Source of the DNA: Eledone cirrhosa
Taxonomy: Eukaryota
Direction: 5' to 3'
Length of the DNA: 64,000 bases
Assembly (NCBI GenBank): GCA_964016885.1
Contig: OZ024740.1
Location: 425,568,001-425,632,000 of the forward strand
Position numbers and translations under genes: made by a program. Under the pieces are notes generated by a model. It ran no database searches, was not told where the DNA came from, and saw only the letters and a list, made by a program, of their open reading frames with translations. Of this stretch, positions 7,812 through 17,585 are shown one piece after another (within the stretch, counting starts at the first letter, position 1; each line of letters starts with the position of its first letter).

Positions 7812-8005
7812 ATAGGAAAAGTGTCAGGACCCGGACGGCAGAGCTCAAGCCGTTTCGACGGCTATTCTGGACAGAAATAGCCGTCGAAACGGCTTGAGCT
7901 TTGCCGTCGGGGTCCTGACTCTTTTCTATTACCCACTTCACTACCCAAAGTATCGAGTACTCTGGTGCGTTATGGTCCACCTGGTTCCTTACCACACTTC
8001 CTTCG

Positions 8006-8008
<3 letters not shown>
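7812..8008 (+). mobile_element. Short fold-back element (~55-bp inverted arms plus tail), probable Penelope pLTR remnant
   Basis: Arms 7812-7866 and 7876-7929. Contains GAAACGGC-ttgagcttt-GCCGTC, the 3' half of a hammerhead. A second copy lies in opposite orientation at 12803-13000. Embedded in (CA)n/(TA)n. Confidence 0.7.
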
Positions 8009-8094
<86 letters not shown>

Positions 8095-8270
8095 AGAGTC
8101 GCGACTCCGACAGATGAGCTCTTGCTGTTTCAACAAGCTATGTTTGTATGTATGTATGTAAATGTTTATATATGTATTATGTATGTATGTATGTATGTAT
8201 ATATGTATGTATGTATATATGTATGTATTATGTTATATGTTTTATGTTTTATTATGTATTATTATGTTAT
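8008..8270. repeat. (TA)n and (TATG)n microsatellites
   Basis: Read directly from the sequence; interrupted by a short non-repetitive insert at ~8092-8140. Confidence 0.9.
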
Positions 8271-8575
8271 GTCAGGTCACCAGCTGGTGCTACTGGTAAC
8301 ATGTATCCCAGTACAACTTGTCTCATGGTCGGGTCTTTGGCGACTAAACTGAAAACCCCACCAAGGTTTCTTGGTGAGGAGGGTGATTTTGGACATCCTG
8401 CAGGACTAAAAACAAAACCTGTCATAGGGAAAAGGAGCTCTTAAGAGTCAATGGCCATCCAAAATCACCGGGAGAGATGACCCCTTAGTCTTTGTCAAGG
8501 CAGAATTCTAGGAGAAAGAAAACTCTGATATAACACCTGCAACCCTGATGGTATCCAATGATGTTGACTTGTTCT
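8271..8575 (+). mobile_element. Possible RTE-clade LINE 5' UTR or RTE-related repeat fragment
   Basis: Higher-complexity block starting after a microsatellite. GGAGAAAGAAAACTCTGATATAACACCT resembles RTE 5' UTR motifs as recalled. No ORF support. Confidence 0.3.
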
Positions 8576-8944
8576 TCTTTTTGGTAAATATCATCTTGGT
8601 TAAGAGAGTGGGACTGGCTTTGTGCAGTGCCTTTTCTCACTATAAAAGTTTCACGGCACAGGCATTGCTTTATATCTGGAGATCTCTCTGCACTTGTCGT
8701 CACATGGTACCATGGGCCCAGCACTATGTGTTAATAATTGTCACAAGTGTAGTGTTTGTACCAGAGTTTTCAAGTCGCTGGCTGGACTAAAAAGTCACAC
8801 TAGTTCAGCGCATCGGTAGGGGTTCTCCTACATGGATATAAAGTAGTGGCCGTACTCGAAAACGAGTTGGCAGCCACCATATATGTATATATGTATGTAT
8901 GTATTACATATGTATGTATTTCATTCATTCATTCATTTAATGTT

Positions 8945-9085
8945 TACAGTAATTAGACAGCGGTCAGGCTGGAGCACTGTCTTAATTTAAAGGATCATAT
9001 ATCGCCCCTAGTATTTATGTTGTCAAGTCTAATACTTATTTTATTGGTCACATTTTGTCAAACCACTCATGGGTACGGAAAACGA
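8945..9085 (-). mobile_element. SINE 3' region fragment (diverged)
   Basis: TAGACAGCGGTCAGGCTGGAGCAC..ATCGCCCCTAGTATTTAT..TACTTATTTTATTGGTC. Shares a degenerate ATCGACCCCAGTACT motif with the SINE at 3235. Confidence 0.5.
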
Positions 9086-9301
9086 CTCCCCCCCCCCCCA
9101 CACACACATATATATATATACATATCCAAGGATGGTGTCCCAGCATGTCCTCAGCTGGATGGCTGGAACAGATAGAAGAATAAAAAAATATATGTAAACG
9201 GAAAAAATGAAACGAAATTTCATTTCCCACTCTTAGTACGGCTGTTACTTAAATATAAGTATGTACACGTACATACATATATGTATACAGACGTACAGTA
9301 G

Positions 9302-9339
<38 letters not shown>

Positions 9340-9749
9340 CATGCACACATATATAAATGCACGTATGGATTCACCGAACATTTATTATAATGCTCGGTGT
9401 GTTTGTAAACAAACATCCCGTATTAAGCCGTAGTGTCCAGCAACCATCGTTGCTCGTTTGTTCACACTGACAAAGGAACGCTGTACTAGTTTCAAGCTAT
9501 ATGTATGTATGTGTATATATATATGCATATATATATTATATGCAGTTAGATGACCAGTTAGGCTATTGTCACTGGTAGATCACGAAGTATCCTAGGGTAA
9601 GCATTCAACATCCTGCATCATCCCAGATTACATCTAGTGGTCCTGGCGGAATGTGAAGCATATCCACTGAAGAATAAGTATGCAAAATAGGTTTTTACAA
9701 TTTAGTCAAATATTTTCCGTTACAAATCTTTCGACGGGGTTGACGACTA

Positions 9750-9998
9750 TGCGTAGGACAGAACAAAGGAGAGGCACAAAACAAAGAAAAGAATCCCCAG
9801 TCACTGAAGAGGTCACAGAATGTGTGACGAAAGAACTTTGACAATATATGAACAATCGTCTGGTTGTGGAACCAACCAACCAACCAGAAATTTATAAATT
9901 CCTAAATTTATAAATTTAATTTATAATAAATTGAAGTGAAAGCAACTGGTGCGTGTGTTTCTTATTGGCAACATGACCCTCCCAAAGCATAACAATAT
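9750..9998 (+). mobile_element. Penelope pseudo-LTR, subfamily 2 (copy E)
   Basis: Reverse-complement match to 6128-6368. Ends ATGACCCTCCCAAAGCATAACAATAT and runs into (TA)n. Confidence 0.85.
9800..9842 (+). ncRNA. Type I hammerhead ribozyme
   Basis: GTCA-CTGAAGA-G-GTCACA(gaatg)TGTGAC-GAAA-G-aa-CT-T/TGAC. Perfect stems I (4 bp) and II (6 bp); predicted cleavage after 9838. Confidence 0.88.
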
Positions 9999-10108
9999 AT
10001 ATATATATATATATAAGTAATAATAATAAATTTGAAGACTAAAATCCAAAGAGGGCTCGATAAGGATAAATATATATCACATATATAAGAACCGTAGAGG
10101 AAATATTT

Positions 10109-10200
10109 ATTAAAATAACAGATTAAAGTTTAAGCAAAGAATCGCCCGTGAAGGGTGAAAGCAGCGATTCTTTGCTTAAACTTTAATCTGTTATTTTAAT
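10109..10200. repeat. Perfect inverted repeat, 37-bp arms, 18-nt spacer
   Basis: ATTAAAATAACAGATTAAAGTTTAAGCAAAGAATCGC / GCGATTCTTTGCTTAAACTTTAATCTGTTATTTTAAT. Confidence 0.92.
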
Positions 10201-11076
10201 ATATATTTATATATATGCCGGGCTTCTGCAGTATCCGTCTATCAATTTGACTCACGAGGCATTGCTCAATTCGAAGCTTCAGTAACCAACAGCCTCCTCA
10301 TTTCGATGCTGTCTCGTTAACCACACAGCAATACGTGTATCTACGTATCTATACATGTAACATTGACAACCCTTACATATCTTCATGGTGATCGGCCGTC
10401 GAAAAGAACGTGCCCAGTTTGCACTCCTATCGACGGTTTGCACTCCTACTGGTGGTCCTTCCAGAGTTCCATTGTCAAAAAAATAGTCGTACAGTAAGTG
10501 ATGAAAAGGATGAATAGGACCTGAAGTCAAAAACATAGAGAACGTGACATCCAGAGAAGAAAATATTTGCTGGGTTAAACAGCGATCGTCACGGGTGTTA
10601 TTGCAATATTGGCAACAAGTACAAAATCTATGATCATCAGCCGTCGAAATAGATGTGCAGTTTCCTTCCCTACCGGTGTTGCTGCTGGCTATCCGGGATC
10701 ATTCTGTCCTTGGAGTATTTAGACGAAAATCGAACAAAGAAGGAATGTCGTTTGTGAAACTCGAATTTTCGAACTTATTAAGCGCTGAGGAAATAAATTT
10801 ATAATAAAATGTAGACGCTCAGACGCTGGCAACACAGTTCCGCCTCTAAGGATCTTTACCCGAATTTATAGCAACTGATTGTAATTGCAGTTGGTTTCTG
10901 CGTCTGAGTTTCCTAAATCTTTTTATAAGACAAAATAAAACCTATGTATATAGAAGTAATTGTACGTACAGTAAGTGACGAAAGGGGCTAAGTAGACCTG
11001 GTGACGGAAGCATACACAGAGAATATCTCGTCCAGAGGAGAAAATATCTAGTTTTATGTATCTATGAATGTATGTG

Positions 11077-11315
11077 AAGGCACGGGGCTTCGTAGTTAGG
11101 GTATGCGGTGGTCATTTCTGGCGGCGTGTAGTGTCCCCGAGAAAGTCAGTATATTTCCCGTTTCTCTAGTCTACCCAGCTACATTCATACATTGTGCCAC
11201 GGCGAATCTTCACTAGAACGTACGGTAATGCTCAGAAACTTGCGCGTTAATTCCGCAAATAGTATACTACCTTGGTGAAAGAACTGGAACATTCATCGTC
11301 GGAACCGACCGAGGT
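11077..11315 (+). mobile_element. Diverged tRNA-derived SINE (same type as 5636-5755)
   Basis: GAAGGCACGGGGCTTCGTAGTTAGG head and GTGTCCCCGAGAAAG..TATTTCCCGTTTCTCTAGT. Tail motif TCATCGTCG is also seen at ~5895. Confidence 0.45.
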
Positions 11316-11324
11316 CCAACAGTA

Positions 11325-11810
11325 CGTATGTACATACATACATATGCACATACATAAGTACATACGTATGAATGAATGTGGATAGGTTGTGTGTGTGTGT
11401 ATGTATGTATGTATATGTATATATATATGTATGTATGTCCTGGTTTTATTATTTTTATAAATCTTTGTATTTATGTATATACGCCCGTACGTATGTATGT
11501 ATGTATGTATGTATGTATGTATGTATGTATGTATGTATGTATGTATGTATGTATGTATGTATGTATGTATGTATGTACGTACGTACGTCCGTATGTATAT
11601 ATGTATGTATATATGTAAGTATGTAAGTAAATATTTATGTATGTATGTATTTATATATGCATGTATGCGTATGTATGAATTTATATATGTATGTTTATGT
11701 TGTATGTATATATGTATGTCTATGTATTTATTTATATATGTATGTCTATGTATGTATTTATATATGTATGTATGTGTATGTATTTATATATGTATGTATG
11801 TGTATGCATA
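11325..11810. repeat. (TATG)n microsatellite and degenerate flanks
   Basis: Read directly from the sequence. Confidence 0.92.
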
Positions 11811-12279
11811 GTTAATTAACTCTATACGTGAGAAGAAAATAAAATAAATCGTGGCGAAGGGCGGAGATTGCTACTGGAAAAAAAAATAAAAAAACAAAAA
11901 ATAAAACCACACACACAAAAACCAACGAAGATCCAAATTAAAGATATTGAACACTGCCAATGTCAGGACACATATCAACGTTAGTTTAAATCAGGAAATG
12001 AAAATACGATGATGTTCGTAGCCATCTTGCCACATAAATAGCCGATGACTATTGGTCAAATGTCATAGACAGTCATGTGGTACATGCATATTATTGCAAG
12101 ATAGTTATATGTATTTTCACTCTAATAAAATGCAGAGATTCAACGTTGGGGTGGGGTGGGACTGGTTTATATTTGAACCACCAAGAGAGAGACTATGTAG
12201 TCAGTCCAACATGGAGAAACACCAGTAAACCGGTTGTACACGGCGAATGATGTAGTCTTGAACCTCTTGTAAATAGGCA

Positions 12280-12367
12280 AATGGGTGAATAGATAAAGCT
12301 AGAAAGGGTTTGATCATATATAAAGATATATGATCAAACCCTTTCTAGCTTTGTCTATTCACCCATT
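12280..12367. repeat. Near-perfect inverted repeat, 42-bp arms, 4-nt loop
   Basis: AATGGGTGAATAGATAAAGCTAGAAAGGGTTTGATCATATAT-aaag-ATATATGATCAAACCCTTTCTAGCTTTGTCTATTCACCCATT, one mismatch. Confidence 0.92.
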
Positions 12368-12381
12368 CTGTTCTTATATAT

Positions 12382-12790
12382 AGTTATACTTGGGGAGGGT
12401 CATATTGTTATAATATTGCCAGAAATAATAACAGAACACACTAACTGTTTGGTTGGTTTATTAAATAAAATGGCGTAGACATTACGATACAATAGGAGGA
12501 AACATAATAGTACCATTGATGATGTTGCACATGTGCAACGAAAGAACTTTGATAGACTATATATATATATATATATATTTATATCTGTATTTTTAACCGC
12601 TGGTCAATAAATGATAAACGTTGATTGCCAAATAAATTAACTATAGAGATATAAAAGATACAGAAGTGAAAACCAACCAAACAGTGAGTGTGTTCTGTTA
12701 TTATTTCTGGCAATATTACAACAATATGACCCTCCCCAAATATAACGATATTTGTTTCGACACACGATTTCATATCAAAACAAACAAATA
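12382..12790 (+). mobile_element. Penelope pseudo-LTR, subfamily 1 (copy B), preceded by an inverted partial copy
   Basis: 12462-12790 matches copy A and adds the ORF start MTLPKYNDICFDTRFHIKTNK (ATG 12726). 12382-12459 is the reverse complement of ~12670-12746. Confidence 0.85.
12510..12555 (+). ncRNA. Hammerhead ribozyme, C3-to-U core variant (probably impaired)
   Basis: TACCA-TTGATGA-T-GTTGCAC(at)GTGCAAC-GAAA-GAACTT-TGATAG. Confidence 0.7.
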
Positions 12791-12802
12791 TATATATATA
12801 TA

Positions 12803-13000
12803 CATAACAAAGGAATTGTGGTAAGGAACCAGATGAACCATGACTCACCAGAGTACTCAATACTTAGGGTAGTAGAGTGGGAAATAGGAAAAAGTATGAC
12901 CCCGACGGCAGAGCTCAAGCCGTTTCGACGGCTATTTCTGGACTACAAATAGCCGTGGAAACGGCTTGAGCTCTGCCGTCGGGTCATACTTTTCCCTATA
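12803..13000 (-). mobile_element. Second copy of the short fold-back element (see 7812-8008)
   Basis: Tail 12803-12883 is the reverse complement of 7930-8008. Arms ~12884-12937 and 12947-13000 contain GAAACGGC-ttgagctct-GCCGTC. Confidence 0.7.
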
Positions 13001-13088
13001 TATATATATACAAATAAAATATAGAGTTATTAACTCATATTGATACCCTGCAATTAACAAGCTCAAAGTATAAATACTGAGCATTATA

Positions 13089-13478
13089 TAATATATGTAG
13101 AAATAAACACAGCAATTTCTGCGTCCAAAATTACGAGAGTAGATTTTACCACAAATGTTTATATATTTAAACTGAAACATACAGTTGGATACAAGATTTG
13201 CTATACATACCGTATTAATAACGATTTCATCTCTCGGAGACTAAAGATTTAATCTGTTTCGCCCTGAAAAAATTGTGTTTGTAACAGATAATCCTTAGGC
13301 ATTTTTTCAGGGCGAATCTTTAGTCAGTCCGAGAGATGAAATCGTTATTGATACGGTATGTATAGGAAATCTTGTATCTTACTGTATTTTTCAGTTTAAA
13401 TATATAAAACATTTGTTGTAAAATCTACCCTCGTAATTTTAGACGCAGAATTTGCAGTGTTTATTTCTACATATATTA
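13089..13478. repeat. Long imperfect inverted repeat (~180-bp arms), probable fold-back pLTR of another Penelope family
   Basis: Arms ~13089-13272 and ~13300-13478, e.g. TATGTAGAAATAAACAC / GTGTTTATTTCTACATA, CATACCGTAT / ATACGGTATG, TTCGCCCTGAAAAAAT / ATTTTTTCAGGGCGAA. Confidence 0.85.
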
Positions 13479-13689
13479 ATATATATTGTTATACTTGGGG
13501 AGGGTCATATTTGTGTAATATTGCCAGAATTAATAACAGAACACACTCACTGTTTGGTTGGTTTTCGCTTTTCGCTTCTGTGTCTTTTATATCGGTAATC
13601 TAATGTATTCGGTCCTCAATGTTGCCATTGACTGACCAACGGTAAAAAATAATACAGATACAATATAGACACACACACATATATATAGT

Positions 13690-13735
13690 TTATCAAAGTT
13701 CTTTCGTTGCACATCTGCAACATCGTCAGTGGTGC
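13690..13735 (-). ncRNA. Type I hammerhead ribozyme in the Penelope 3' pLTR (sense to the ORF)
   Basis: Minus strand ACCA-CTGACGA-T-GTTGCA(gatg)TGCAAC-GAAA-G-aa-CT-T/TGAT, ~280 nt downstream of the ORF stop. Confidence 0.87.
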
Positions 13736-14008
13736 TATTGTTTCCTCCCGTTACATTGTATGTCTACGCCATCTTTATTTAGTCTGTTTATATATTTATT
13801 TATTTATTTGTTTGTTTGTTTATTTTATTTTGTCTTCTTTGGCATGCGTTTGCGTGTGTGTATAGTGTTTTGTTTGATGTGTGTTCGTGATTGGGTGACT
13901 GTGTATTGGTTAATGTATTCTATCTTTACTAGTGTGTGTTTATATGTGTTTGTTGTTATTGTGCTTGTTTATGTATTTATTTATTTATTTATCTATTTAT
14001 TTATTTAT

Positions 14009-15373
14009 TTATACTTCTCTTACGTCAGTGTTGTTTGTTTGGGTGTTGTTGTTATTCCATTCATTCTTTCTGTTTAGCCTTGGCCTTCTAAGTTCTATTT
14101 CATTGGCCTCTCTGATTTGCCTATCTGCTGGGTCATTTCTATGTTTAGATATTATTCTAATTTCTATGTTGTCTATGTTACCGTCGTGTTGTTGTCTGGC
14201 ATGTTCGTATAGTACTGATCCGTTTTTTCGTCCCTTTAGTTCCCCCCAGTGTTGGTCTATCCTTTCACCTATGCTACGAGCTGTCTCGCCTATGTATGTT
14301 GTTGTCATGTTTCTGCAAGTACCCTCTGTACATCTTATGCTATAGACTACGTTTCTAGTTTTACAGTTTATCCGGGGGTTTACCTTACATATGATACATT
14401 TCCTATTAGTACAGTGGGTTTTCTTAAAAGGGTAGGTTTTGCTGATCAGGGATTTTATGGTGGTTCCTGGCTTTTCTACCACCTTAATCTTTAAGTGGGT
14501 CTTTCTCAGGGCCTTTCTACACTGGTTAGCTAATTTCCCTCCAGGGGTAGCGTCCACAAACATGACACTCTGGTATCTCTGGTTGTCGTACCATGAGGTG
14601 GCTTTCCCTATCTTATGTCTAGCCCTATCTAAGCTATTCCATGATTTGCTCCTGTATAATGGGCAAATTCCTTTGATGTCCAGTTCTATGAGGGTCTTAT
14701 ACTTCTCCATGGCTCCTTCGTATACTCTGACTCTGTCTCTTTGGTTGTAGCCAGAGAACTGCATGCGGTTGATGAAGTGTTGGATGTGTCTTTCCATTTC
14801 TGTTGGGTCGCACATGCGGGACACATTCTTCATCACTCGTACCAAATCTGCGATCAGAATATTAAACTTAGCACTACTGGACATTGCTGAGTTTTTGAGT
14901 ATCAGGTATTTGGAGGCCATGGGTTTAGCATAGTGTGAGTGGAGAATTTGGGCTCTCTCGTCTATAGTGTTAATCCAGAGTTCCGTGTCTAATACAGGTA
15001 GTCTATTGTTAGGGTGTTTGGAAGGGAAGTCGATAGTTACAGTTATACTCTGGTGTATGGAATTAGCTATCTGCTGGATGCTTTCCATTGTGCTACGTTC
15101 TAAATCAAACTTGTTAGTGCTCTCTAGTGGGGATGCTCTTATAACTATATTGATATCGTCTACGTAACGAGAGTACATGATGAGGTCTATGGAGCTCTCA
15201 TTAAGGAGATCTTTAAGTCTCCTTTCCCACCATACCATAAAAAGGTTGGCAACATCACCAGCTATGCTGACGCCAATGGCTGCTCCCTCATTTTGGGTGT
15301 AGATCTCGTTGAACTTGAATATATGGCCCTTTAGGGTAGTTTTGATACTAGCCCCTATTGCATGTGCGACCAT
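14009..15373 (-). pseudogene. Penelope polyprotein C-terminal part: RT motifs 4-7, thumb, Cys-rich linker, GIY-YIG endonuclease
   Basis: FKFNEIYTQNEGAAIG, YSRYVDD, LPVLD, CTNRKCIIC, NVVYSIRC...YIGETARSIGERIDQH, RQIREA..I..RPRLN. Confidence 0.93.
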
Positions 15374-15386
15374 TTTTCTTACCTGA

Positions 15387-15899
15387 TCATTGTTTTGGGG
15401 GGTCCCTATAGCTTTGGTCCACCCAATCCACCTTTTTTGTCATTGAGGTTATGGTGGGGGGTCTACCTCTTATAGGTCTACTAGGGCAGAAACGTCTAAG
15501 GTCATGGCTGTCTAGGTAGTCAGTGTCGTAGGTAAGTCTAAGTAGGAGGCCCAGTTCGTATGTGTCGACGTCGCAGAACTCCACTTCACTCTCAATGATC
15601 ATCTCCACACATTTTTCCACAGCAAAATCAATGTTAATGGATGGGTACAGTGACACCACATCCATGCTGCCTATTATGCAGTTGGATAGGTTCCTGTTTT
15701 TGTTGCACTCACTGATTCTGCTGAGGAGGTCCTCTGTACTGTCACATACATCTGGGGACATCTTGATTATGGGGCGTATAACCATTGAGAGGAAGTAGGA
15801 GATCCTGTTGTTGCTAGCTATATTAGCTCCGCATATGGGTCTTGTTGGTGGTCCTGTTGTCGGGTCGTCGACTGTCTTGTGGTCTTGGAGCCCATACAA
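15387..15899 (-). pseudogene. Penelope RT motifs 1-3 fragment (frameshifted)
   Basis: MYGLQDHK..PPTRPIC (YGLxKxHK / P-RPI of Penelope RTs) and GSMDVVSLYPSI. Confidence 0.9.
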
Positions 15900-16415
15900 G
15901 GGTGGTATGCGACTGTTAGACGCCTGGAAGTTGTTGGCAGTGCGTCTGCTTGCTTTAGGATGTCAGTCCACATCATCATGTGAGCGTTGAGGATTTTCTC
16001 TCTCCCATCATGTGTTTGCTGTGCAATTTCGCTCGTGTTGGTGATGTGGGGTTGCATAGCCTTGATGTAGTTCGGCATGCTAACTATTGACATCCTACCA
16101 GACTTATCCGTGGGTAGACATAATACCTCACCATCCCTTGTGCGCTGCTTGAGGCTAACCAAGCTTTCTACAGGTTTCCTCCCAAGTTGTTGGGCCTCTG
16201 GTCTGCTCTGTCTCTCAGTATACCGGTCTACTATTTGTCTAATCTTATTTCTAGCTATGGTGAACTGTGCCTCTGTCTCGTCATCTATTTGCTGTGGTAT
16301 GCAAACTCTTTTATTAAAGGGTAACCTCGTAGGATAGATATTACCCATCATATATGTTTTGTCAGCTGGGTTGAAAAATAGTTTCTCTAAGGGGTTGTCA
16401 TTATATCTATCGTCA
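15900..16415 (-). pseudogene. Penelope pre-RT region fragment
   Basis: PTRLPFNKRVCIP..SLKQRTRDGEVLCLPTDKSGRMSIVSMPNY. The (P/A)DK(S/G) motif precedes Penelope RT domains. Confidence 0.85.
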
Positions 16416-16459
16416 TAGTATATATATAATATAGTATATGTAATATAGTATATATATAT

Positions 16460-16583
16460 AATATTGAAATGGCTTCTACAGGAGTAGAACTGTTTCATTC
16501 CGAGTAAATCATCAGGGAAGGGCTTTCCTGATGATTTCCTCCGAATGAAACAGTTCTAGTCCTGTAGAAGCTATTTCTATATT
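16460..16583. ncRNA. Palindrome with back-to-back hammerhead cores, one on each strand
   Basis: Plus strand CTTTC-CTGATGA(16528)-tttcctccgaat-GAAACAG-ttctagtc-CTGTA/GAAG. Minus strand CTTCC-CTGATGA-tttactcggaat-GAAACAG-ttctactc-CTGTA/GAAG. Stem II is weak. Confidence 0.65.
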
Positions 16584-17585
16584 AAATATCTATACACTGC
16601 TATGTATCGAATACCTTACTTACTGTGGTTACCCCCCGATTGAACCCGGGATACGTACACACACACACAGAGACACAGACAGACACACACACACACACAC
16701 ACATAACACACACACATATATATATATATAAAATACGGAGAACAGAATTCGAAGAGGGCTCAATATATTAACCACATATGGAAAAATGCAGGGCATAACA
16801 TTTTAAAATCAATTGACATCCAAATAGGTACTTGAAATATGATCAATCTAGCACATGAGAGCTTATTTAGTTTATTAGAACGGCCCCTCTACTATATAGT
16901 GGTGACCAGAACTGAACCCCGAAACCTAACGTCGCAAATAGATGTTAAATTTAATATAAACTGCGAGTCTTTAACTCCGTTTTTTCATTTGATATTTTGC
17001 CTCCTAATTTCTTTATTAGTTGAGCTTTCTAAGTTGAATGGTTATAGGTTGCCATTTCTAGCGGTCTCTTGGTCTATTCAAGCCACTGTATACTGTCTGG
17101 CGCGCGTGTTTTCGTTTCTCTCTCTCCGTGCTATTTTTCAGTTGTCTAAAATCTCTTTAGAAGTGTTGACCGTATCTTCTTTACACCTACCAACGAGCCC
17201 CGAGGGGTTATGGCACCAACACTGTTTAGGGCAAAACATTCTCTTCTTTCAGTCTGTCCAGGTGTTTCATAGTTATAAAGGTGAGTCTGTACATTTTAAT
17301 TTATCTTTTTAATTATTTTGTATTTCCACTCCTTTCGTAGACTTTATGTTCTTCACACTAGTGGTTCTATACCCCTCGTAATTGAAAACATACCCTTTTT
17401 GTGTATTCTCCTCTATTTATTGTATTATGAAGAGTCGGTACTTATTCCTTGAGCTCATTAATTGCAGGGTGTTAACACAAGTCTTAAATTTCGTTTCTTC
17501 ATTTCATATATATATTATTCTTTAGTTCCCTTTGGTCTTTATGGAGCATCTCGTGACTCTAGTCATTTCTAGAGCGATTTTGATT

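Follow-up and report, generated by a model that had tools for sequence, protein, structure and literature searches.

Why fold-back palindromes of different sequence should repeatedly be centred on a hammerhead ribozyme motif is the question raised by a repeat-rich stretch of the Eledone cirrhosa genome. The window, i.e., the whole stretch of 64,000 nucleotides (nt) analyzed here, corresponds to G000:C1:425568001-425632000 (contig OZ024740.1) of a 3.0-Gb genome, and its first 17.5 kb contains abundant (TA)n and repeats. The original prediction, made from the sequence of the window, held that the palindromes derive from inverted pieces of Penelope elements and that ribozyme structure or cleavage may fix the inversion junction. 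The palindromes proved to be inverted, truncated ends of Penelope-like elements (PLEs), as had been supposed, but the junction is probably set by the capped 5′ end of the element RNA.

Sequence, palindrome and motif searches located palindromes at 7816-7926 (P1), 10101-10208 (P2), 12280-12367 (P3), 12801-12999 (P4), ∼13089-13478 (P5), and 16448-16595 (P6), a GAAA-stem-UH half motif at 7886, 10157, 12958, and 16547, and CTGATGA at 16528(+) and 16515(-), so that both the fold-back palindromes and the GAAA-stem III-UH motifs first reported are real. The palindromes had been described as six of unrelated sequence; four families (F1, F2, F5, and F6) are indeed represented, and P1 and P4 turned out to be the same family, F1. 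P2 corresponds to F2, P5 to F5, P6 to F6, and a further palindrome at 12375-12749 (P7) to F7. The half motif by itself is weak, as 12% of random positions, sampled over 200 kb of the genome, have one with a stem of at least 3 bp beginning no more than 45 nt outward (6.8% for 4 bp). The pattern of the window nevertheless exceeds chance, a half motif in four of six independent families being expected about once in 400 (hand arithmetic, with P1 and P4 counted as one family and palindrome 12375-12749 scored as a miss). Twenty random 10-kb stretches (200 kb), which served as the background sample, gave one family match. An Rfam scan of the window returned no hammerhead family among 49 matches with E up to 5, all of them microsatellite or hairpin matches below gathering scores.

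A breakpoint hot spot upstream of the predicted cleavage site

Breakpoints were counted from the predicted hammerhead cleavage site, +1 being the first base 3′ of the cut. The statistics cover F1, F2, and F6, since the anchor used for F5 lay within its tandem unit, where interruptions by another repeat are frequent. For each family, 70 insertions, each an exact match to the tail, were collected along C1 in the order of their positions, and matches less than 3 kb from the preceding one were skipped (four for F1 and two for F2). Such a tail-anchored sample is biased to young copies and to one chromosome arm and is unbiased for upstream length. Samples collected by DNA similarity are query-biased; these were excluded from the hot-spot counts and included in the count of extra G residues. 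The end of an insertion was scored as the furthest point of either arm, tail-only copies being excluded (5 of F1, 1 of F6, and 16 of F2), and the arms were parsed automatically, with some visible errors.

Plotted against the predicted cleavage site, as the original prediction had suggested, the breakpoints were far from random. In F1, 47/65 insertions ended in -49..-33 (median -40), in F6 40/69 ended in -52..-36 (median -44), and in F2 15/54 ended in -54..-38 (median -45), while 7, 16, and 21 copies of F1, F6, and F2, respectively, ran past -180. Expressed per 100 nt at risk, the end rate in the hot spot was 8.35 for F1, 5.77 for F6, and 2.43 for F2, whereas it was 0.35-0.54 around the cleavage site, 0.23-0.36 within the body of the ribozyme, and 0.18-0.25 upstream. 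Hence, the breakpoints lie neither at random nor at the cut site. This bears directly on the proposal that hammerhead self-cleavage makes the RNA 5′ end and thereby the junction. Insertions ending within -7..+10 do occur (F1 4/65, F6 5/69, and F2 5/54), but their rate is near the background of 0.18-0.36, most arms retain 30-45 nt upstream of the cut, and cleavage is dispensable in vitro for the Anolis carolinensis element in the work of Frangieh et al. (2024; PMC11167929) as far as available. The proposal is largely refuted thereby and appears highly improbable.

The position of the hot spot relative to the ribozyme fold is less straightforward. In F2 and F6, it coincides exactly with the first base or 5′ edge of stem I; in F1, the ends spread along the 3′ side of the loop II hairpin, and single junctions join via stem I, II, or III pairing. 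The ribozyme fold, either through the closing stem I or through the long loop II hairpin of F1, might thus stall the reverse transcriptase (RT) or let the cDNA fold back, as the first reading of the window had also proposed. However, the stem I edge in two families is replaced by the inside of loop II in the third, so the hot spot follows no ribozyme landmark. The RT would moreover meet the 3′ strands first, where the end rates equal the background (0.23-0.36), and the three folds tested were no stabler than shuffles (z of +1.36, -0.12, and +0.16). F5 has the longest stems, yet 23/27 of its other distinct copies continue past the core (counted by eye in a query-biased sample), and the extra G described below is left unexplained. 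Control of the junction by the fold is accordingly unlikely, and less likely than control by the RNA 5′ end. In L274 and L297, which belong to an F1 subfamily whose loop II differs in sequence, the junction is still at about -40; the same distance despite another loop II favours a cause acting at fixed spacing.

TATA spacing, an extra G and a probable RNA 5′ end

Sequences resembling a core promoter were found at constant distance from the hot spot. TATAAA or TATATA lies 30 nt above it in 15/22 long copies of F6, TATTTA or TATTCA lies 29-31 nt above it in 14/16 long copies of F1, and in the young intact F1 units TATTTAAA is placed 29 nt above the predicted start. The arms that end exactly at the predicted start carry a second signature, namely, an extra G before the start A, which was present in 11/15 of them as compared with 37/143 other ends (Fisher p=4e-4). 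For this count, in which all loci were used, the predicted start was fixed beforehand and the next base had to be unexplained by the other arm, although a few cases had been seen by eye earlier. The G was present in 4/5 arms of F1, 5/5 of F2, and 2/5 of F6, and three untemplated ends at an A at -45/-46 also carry it. In L1 retrotransposition, an extra G is taken to mark a copied cap in the accessible account (PMC11702581). One ORF-bearing copy of F6 (L191; ORF, open reading frame) begins at about -48. The possibility that the hot spot is a splice acceptor was also considered, because AG occurs nearby in all three families and the Drosophila virilis Penelope intron ends at helix I; it was rejected, since no upstream exon piece was found at the junctions by eye.

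It is therefore likely, with a probability of roughly 0.65 on these sequence features, that the hot spot corresponds to the 5′ end of the capped RNA, rather than to a ribozyme cut or stall, and that it sets the junction. The predicted start lies at -41 in F1, inside loop II, and at -46 in F2 and -45 in F6, where it is the first base of stem I; a junction at or within the ribozyme would follow from this position. A literature search that covered few subscription papers retrieved no paper in which inversion junctions of PLEs are mapped to start sites or tied to a capped start at TATA spacing, and none that locates a start within a ribozyme loop.

Several points weigh against the assignment of the hot spot to a capped 5′ end. 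The 17-nt hot-spot windows were defined after the histograms had been inspected. The filter for long F6 copies demanded a TATA, so that the spacing alone is informative there; the F2 box is weak and lies at -33, and that of F1 coincides in part with the 5′ strand of stem II, where pairing may account for its retention. The G signal comes from 15 arms and is not seen in F6 (2/5 vs. 11/47), and the F2 background is high (13/26). As many as 47/197 parsed F1 arms reach 1-8 nt past the predicted start, which implies multiple starts or extensions that are partly due to chance, and a few junctions (L181, L261, and L072) are explained by stem I-III pairing. The promoter of D. virilis Penelope is reported as TATA-less, its start being separated from helix I below it by 46 nt and a 75-nt intron, in the portions available of PMC2377424 and PMC4209133. 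Finally, the F7 ends are broad, with 5/30 arm matches at -102..-80 and four at -55..-41, three match pairs being the same insertion; those at -102..-80 adjoin an AAGATGGCG motif, which we take to be YY1-like.

The elements behind the palindromes

Genome-wide, exact matches to the tail motif numbered 36,875 for F1, 12,005 for F2, and 7,857 for F6, and exact motif matches numbered 212 for F5 and 4,500 for F7, with none for the reversed controls in either case. The CUGANGA half expected upstream of GAAA was recovered in longer genomic copies of all four families F1, F2, F5, and F6, in two of them with variant cores, and the type I arrangement CUGANGA..GAAA..UH with stems I-III was matched by descriptor in long copies of these families and of F7. 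The long copies of F1 contain ACCCC, a core UUGAGAA or UUGAAAA, a long loop II, GAAA, a 4-bp stem III, GUC, and GGGGU, the core being either U3-A8, a variant known from Schistosoma PLEs, or, in the descriptor matches, C3-A8. F2 has AGUUU, CAGAAGA (U4A), a short stem II, a GUU-type triplet, and AAACU; F5 has a standard core with a stem I of 8-10 bp. The core of F6 is standard as well, and its stem I covaries among subfamilies through the compensatory changes (uncounted) AGAUUC/GAAUCU, AGCUUC/GAAGCU, and GGCUUC/GAAGCC, whereas F1 and F2 vary little. All five families thus carry predicted type I hammerheads, of which those with variant cores may be slow or inactive. Compared with the PLE hammerheads described in the consulted part of Cervera and de la Pena (2014; PMC4209133), the same type I motifs in pseudo-long terminal repeats (pLTRs), the U3-A8 variant, and an extra nucleotide after A9 are found, F7 being of their minimal type; the differences are a real stem III in F1, F2, F5, and F6, a long loop II in F1 and F5, U4A in F2, and U.U at 10.1/11.1 in F2 and F6. 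At least five additional hammerhead families were seen as bystanders in the fetched loci (L183, L087, L102, L071, and others).

The search for an associated Penelope ORF was successful in F1, F2, and F6, where the tail continues into an ORF with RWR and SDKT motifs. In F1, an intact ORF of 717 amino acids is present in tandem units of 3,542 nt, in the order hammerhead, pLTR end, tail, and ATG, and contains a CxCX5C linker and, at the C terminus, GIY-YIG; the linker and endonuclease motifs CNCPDRSIC, CNLC, and CKH were read in F1 alone. For F2 and F6, the N-terminal and RT part was read from broken copies. Pfam gave no match on the F1 ORF, and the domains were assigned by motif. In intact F1, the predicted start lies 231 nt and the tail end ∼95 nt above the ATG. 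All three families show (TA)n insertion sites with the hammerhead near the element end.

The Hydra clade of PLEs, which includes Hydra-1_Obim, shares the RWK-type and DKT motifs, the CxCX5C linker, the C-terminal GIY-YIG, the (TA)n targets, and a hammerhead near the end in the available text of Craig et al. (2021; PMC8557442); the clade is defined there by RWK, DKG to DKT, the CxCX5C linker, and CxxC plus CxH in the endonuclease. The RWR of F1, F2, and F6 differs from RWK by one conservative change. By motif, and by a resemblance to Hydra-1_Obim judged by eye, F1, F2, and F6 are assigned as ends of Hydra-clade PLEs, the elements being unremarkable representatives of a clade already known. They differ from what is described for it in the unit size of F1 (3.5 kb as against "generally <3 kb"), in tails of ∼60-80 nt rather than 30-40 nt, and in their variant cores, and the accessible part of that report describes no breakpoint hot spot or start-site mapping. 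Inverted 5′-truncated copies and one-sided tails are given there for PLEs generally. Hammerheads and palindromes at junctions, like tails and inverted truncated copies, are already known from PLEs.

A young tandem master of F1 is present at G000:C1:91473000-91493000 (L445 and L446), where five near-identical leaders are 3,542 nt apart with intact ORFs and the last tail ends in (TA)23. Dozens of further open frames of ∼784 codons occur genome-wide. F5 is a tandem unit of 458 nt, as seen from the 458-nt spacing in L109 and from head-to-tail run-ons, and its units (L233-L258) are often broken at the same AT-rich spot by another repeat. With its type I hammerhead in a tandem unit of 458 nt, it resembles the animal non-LTR retrozymes described in the available sections of bioRxiv 10.64898/2026.07.22.740005, unlike F1, F2, and F6, which are ends of ORF-bearing elements and not tandem monomers. 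F7 is the pLTR of a broken ORF at 14009-16400; the ORF gives a weak RVT_1 match (E=0.0027), its endonuclease is similar to that of F1 (E=7e-7), and by motif it appears Neptune-like. At G000:C1:34853600-34854884, five F7-motif matches ∼315 nt apart form a tandem array, possibly a retrozyme built from the F7 pLTR.

In the window, the tail-less inverted arm of P1 (7816..7871, -) extends to about -40, and its forward arm with a tail of ∼80 nt (7872..8009, +) starts at about -37 in loop II, with GAAA at 7886, a predicted cut after 7908, and an end in (TA)n. The second F1 palindrome, P4, consists of a tail-bearing arm (12801..12945, -; start at about -42, predicted cut after 12904) and a tail-less arm (12947..12999, +; start at about -34, GAAA at 12958). 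P6 (16448..16659, +) comprises both arms of F6 and the tail; the arms extend as far as stem I, up to its 5′ edge at about -46, with the core at 16528, GAAA at 16547, and a predicted cut after 16566, and a complete hammerhead motif is present on each strand. The junctions of P1, P4, and P6 lie at the hot spots of their own families. P2 and P5 break inside the ribozyme, off any hot spot: the tail-bearing arm of P2 (10016..10145, -) starts at -14 in loop III and its tail-less arm (10145..10208, +) at -33 in stem II, with GAAA at 10157 and a predicted cut after 10177, whereas in the inverted pair of F5, a retrozyme-like tandem hammerhead unit (P5; 12997..13482, -), the minus arm starts just past the lost core and the plus arm in loop II. 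The half motif first proposed for P5 is present, but its parse was off: in the family, CAGA..UCUG forms stem III, and GUC preceding CGAGAG serves as the triplet; the arm in the window has lost two letters near the triplet relative to the family. P7 (12375..12749, +) combines a short inverted arm with the forward pLTR of F7 and has a minimal hammerhead with a mutated core and a predicted cut after 12549; its junction is ∼50 nt upstream of this complete minimal-hammerhead site. P7, which breaks outside the ribozyme, thus departs from the pattern.

The 3′ untranslated region and pLTR of F7 occupy 13468..14008 (-), with the core at 13729 and a predicted cut after 13696 in a minimal hammerhead, followed by the broken Penelope-like ORF in three frames (14009..16400, -; upper bound approximate), in which a DKSG motif, RT, a CX4CxxC linker, and GIY-YIG at the C terminus were recognized. 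Complete hammerheads within the window are confined to the P6 arms and the F7 copies. Minimal hammerhead sites of two related PLE subfamilies lie at 2551(+), 6313(-), 9804(+), 12516(+), and 13729(-), and four of these five copies have an A(A/G)ATGGC motif at or near the 5′ boundary. The tails of F1 and F6 (7940-7965 and 16600-16625) have a GTATYGARTAC motif in common, with GTAAG on the opposite strand in both. P3 (12280..12367), an 88-bp near-perfect palindrome, has no hammerhead motif and gave no second copy in the genome search; it is present in one piece in short-read contigs of runs X1 and X2, possibly derived from the source sample itself. The remainder of the window (17586-63997) is filled by a 51-bp satellite of 914 copies with 92% matches.

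A probable origin of both arms from one RNA leader

An adjacent inverted arm was called in 55/70 insertions of F1, 39/70 of F6, and 32/70 of F2, and in 45/55 F1 inversions it starts at +20, without the tail. At variable sites, the two arms are identical in 13/15 cases of F6 (0.34 expected) and in 28/36 of F1 (0.21 expected); variants common to both arms indicate that the arms come from one template or locus. An excess of more than 10 nt of the inverted over the tail arm was seen in 15/55 F1, 6/39 F6, and 21/32 F2 cases; over the 126 inversions, the inverted arm is the longer in 42 and the forward arm in 12. Many F2 insertions consist of a long inverted arm and a tail-only forward arm.

Shared variants would equally be expected if a single cDNA snapped back at the RNA 5′ end or if antisense RNA primed itself, the endonuclease then trimming the hairpin at the pLTR end. 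R2 proteins snap back after full-length cDNA according to the part of PMC11371274 available, and the antisense version, which was proposed for PLE junction palindromes in the accessible text of PMC3846280, predicts the observed bias to longer inverted arms. Snap-back of a tail-primed cDNA, however, cannot make the inverted arm longer than the forward arm, as in the 42 inversions, and antisense self-priming cannot make the forward arm longer, as in the other 12. Nor can the latter account for a cap G or for copies (L191, L227, and L312) that start at the hot spot without being inverted. The two are together rather unlikely, whereas double priming on one RNA explains longer arms of both kinds.

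Amplification of ready-made hairpins is a different possibility, in which non-autonomous, miniature inverted-repeat transposable element (MITE)-like masters were copied as palindromes whose centres decayed later. The outer ends are uniform and the copy number is very high, but the centres differ in nearly every copy, with insertions and duplications, the tail is on one arm only, and the same sequence forms the leader and the 3′ end of intact RT elements. This origin is very improbable, and the MITE-like character first attributed to the hairpins holds only for their shape. The terminal inverted repeats with a fixed interior of DNA transposons were not found; a one-sided tail, a variable centre and many non-inverted copies were seen instead, and any target site duplication is masked by the (TA)n flanks.

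Double priming has a precedent in the Poseidon element of Anolis, a PLE for which two internal RT start sites bounding the tail, cutting and extension of both target strands, and uncleaved RNA as the main template were described in vitro in the available part of PMC11167929; the tail lies there inside the ORF and the inverted junction is not studied in that part, whereas here the tail is upstream of the ATG. L1 twin priming similarly uses two primed ends on one RNA to give an inversion, and an extra G denotes a full-length 5′ end, although in the accessible portion of PMC11702581 L1 inversions barely overlap and break variably, and here the overlap of the arms is complete and their end point is fixed. 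The start of the inverted arm at +20, without the tail, agrees with the two Anolis start sites. By analogy, the endonuclease would nick both strands of the (TA)n target, and each cut DNA end would prime at one of two internal start sites, the tail end and the pLTR end, both arms being reverse-transcribed from one capped, uncleaved RNA leader. As the start sites are within the 5′ leader of a monomeric RNA, the product would be a short, strong-stop-like cDNA. The second cDNA may stop behind the first, leaving a tail-only forward arm, or displace it, giving a palindrome; the cDNAs would run off the RNA 5′ end, and the ends would be joined by microhomology or small insertions.

We tentatively propose, at slightly less than even odds and from sequence comparisons, that PLEs copy their capped 5′ leader into strong-stop-like cDNA by priming two times on a single RNA, and that tens of thousands of these products have been integrated as hairpins that mark the transcription start of each family. 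The F1 promoter would then lie inside the hammerhead, with the TATA box in stem II and the start in loop II; the leader would hold half a ribozyme, so that the cap is not cut off, and a complete ribozyme would form only at the 3′ end of a read-through RNA.

These observations bear on the head-to-head inverted ends of PLEs, on whether the template is sense or antisense, and on the role of the hammerhead, all of which are raised in the available parts of PMC3846280, PMC8557442, and PMC11167929. Junctions are recorded here on a large natural scale, in young families that have thousands of stubs as well as intact tandem masters. Should the hot spot correspond to the capped 5′ end, a sense RNA that has not been cleaved would be the template, and DNA alone would suffice to read the start site in any such family.

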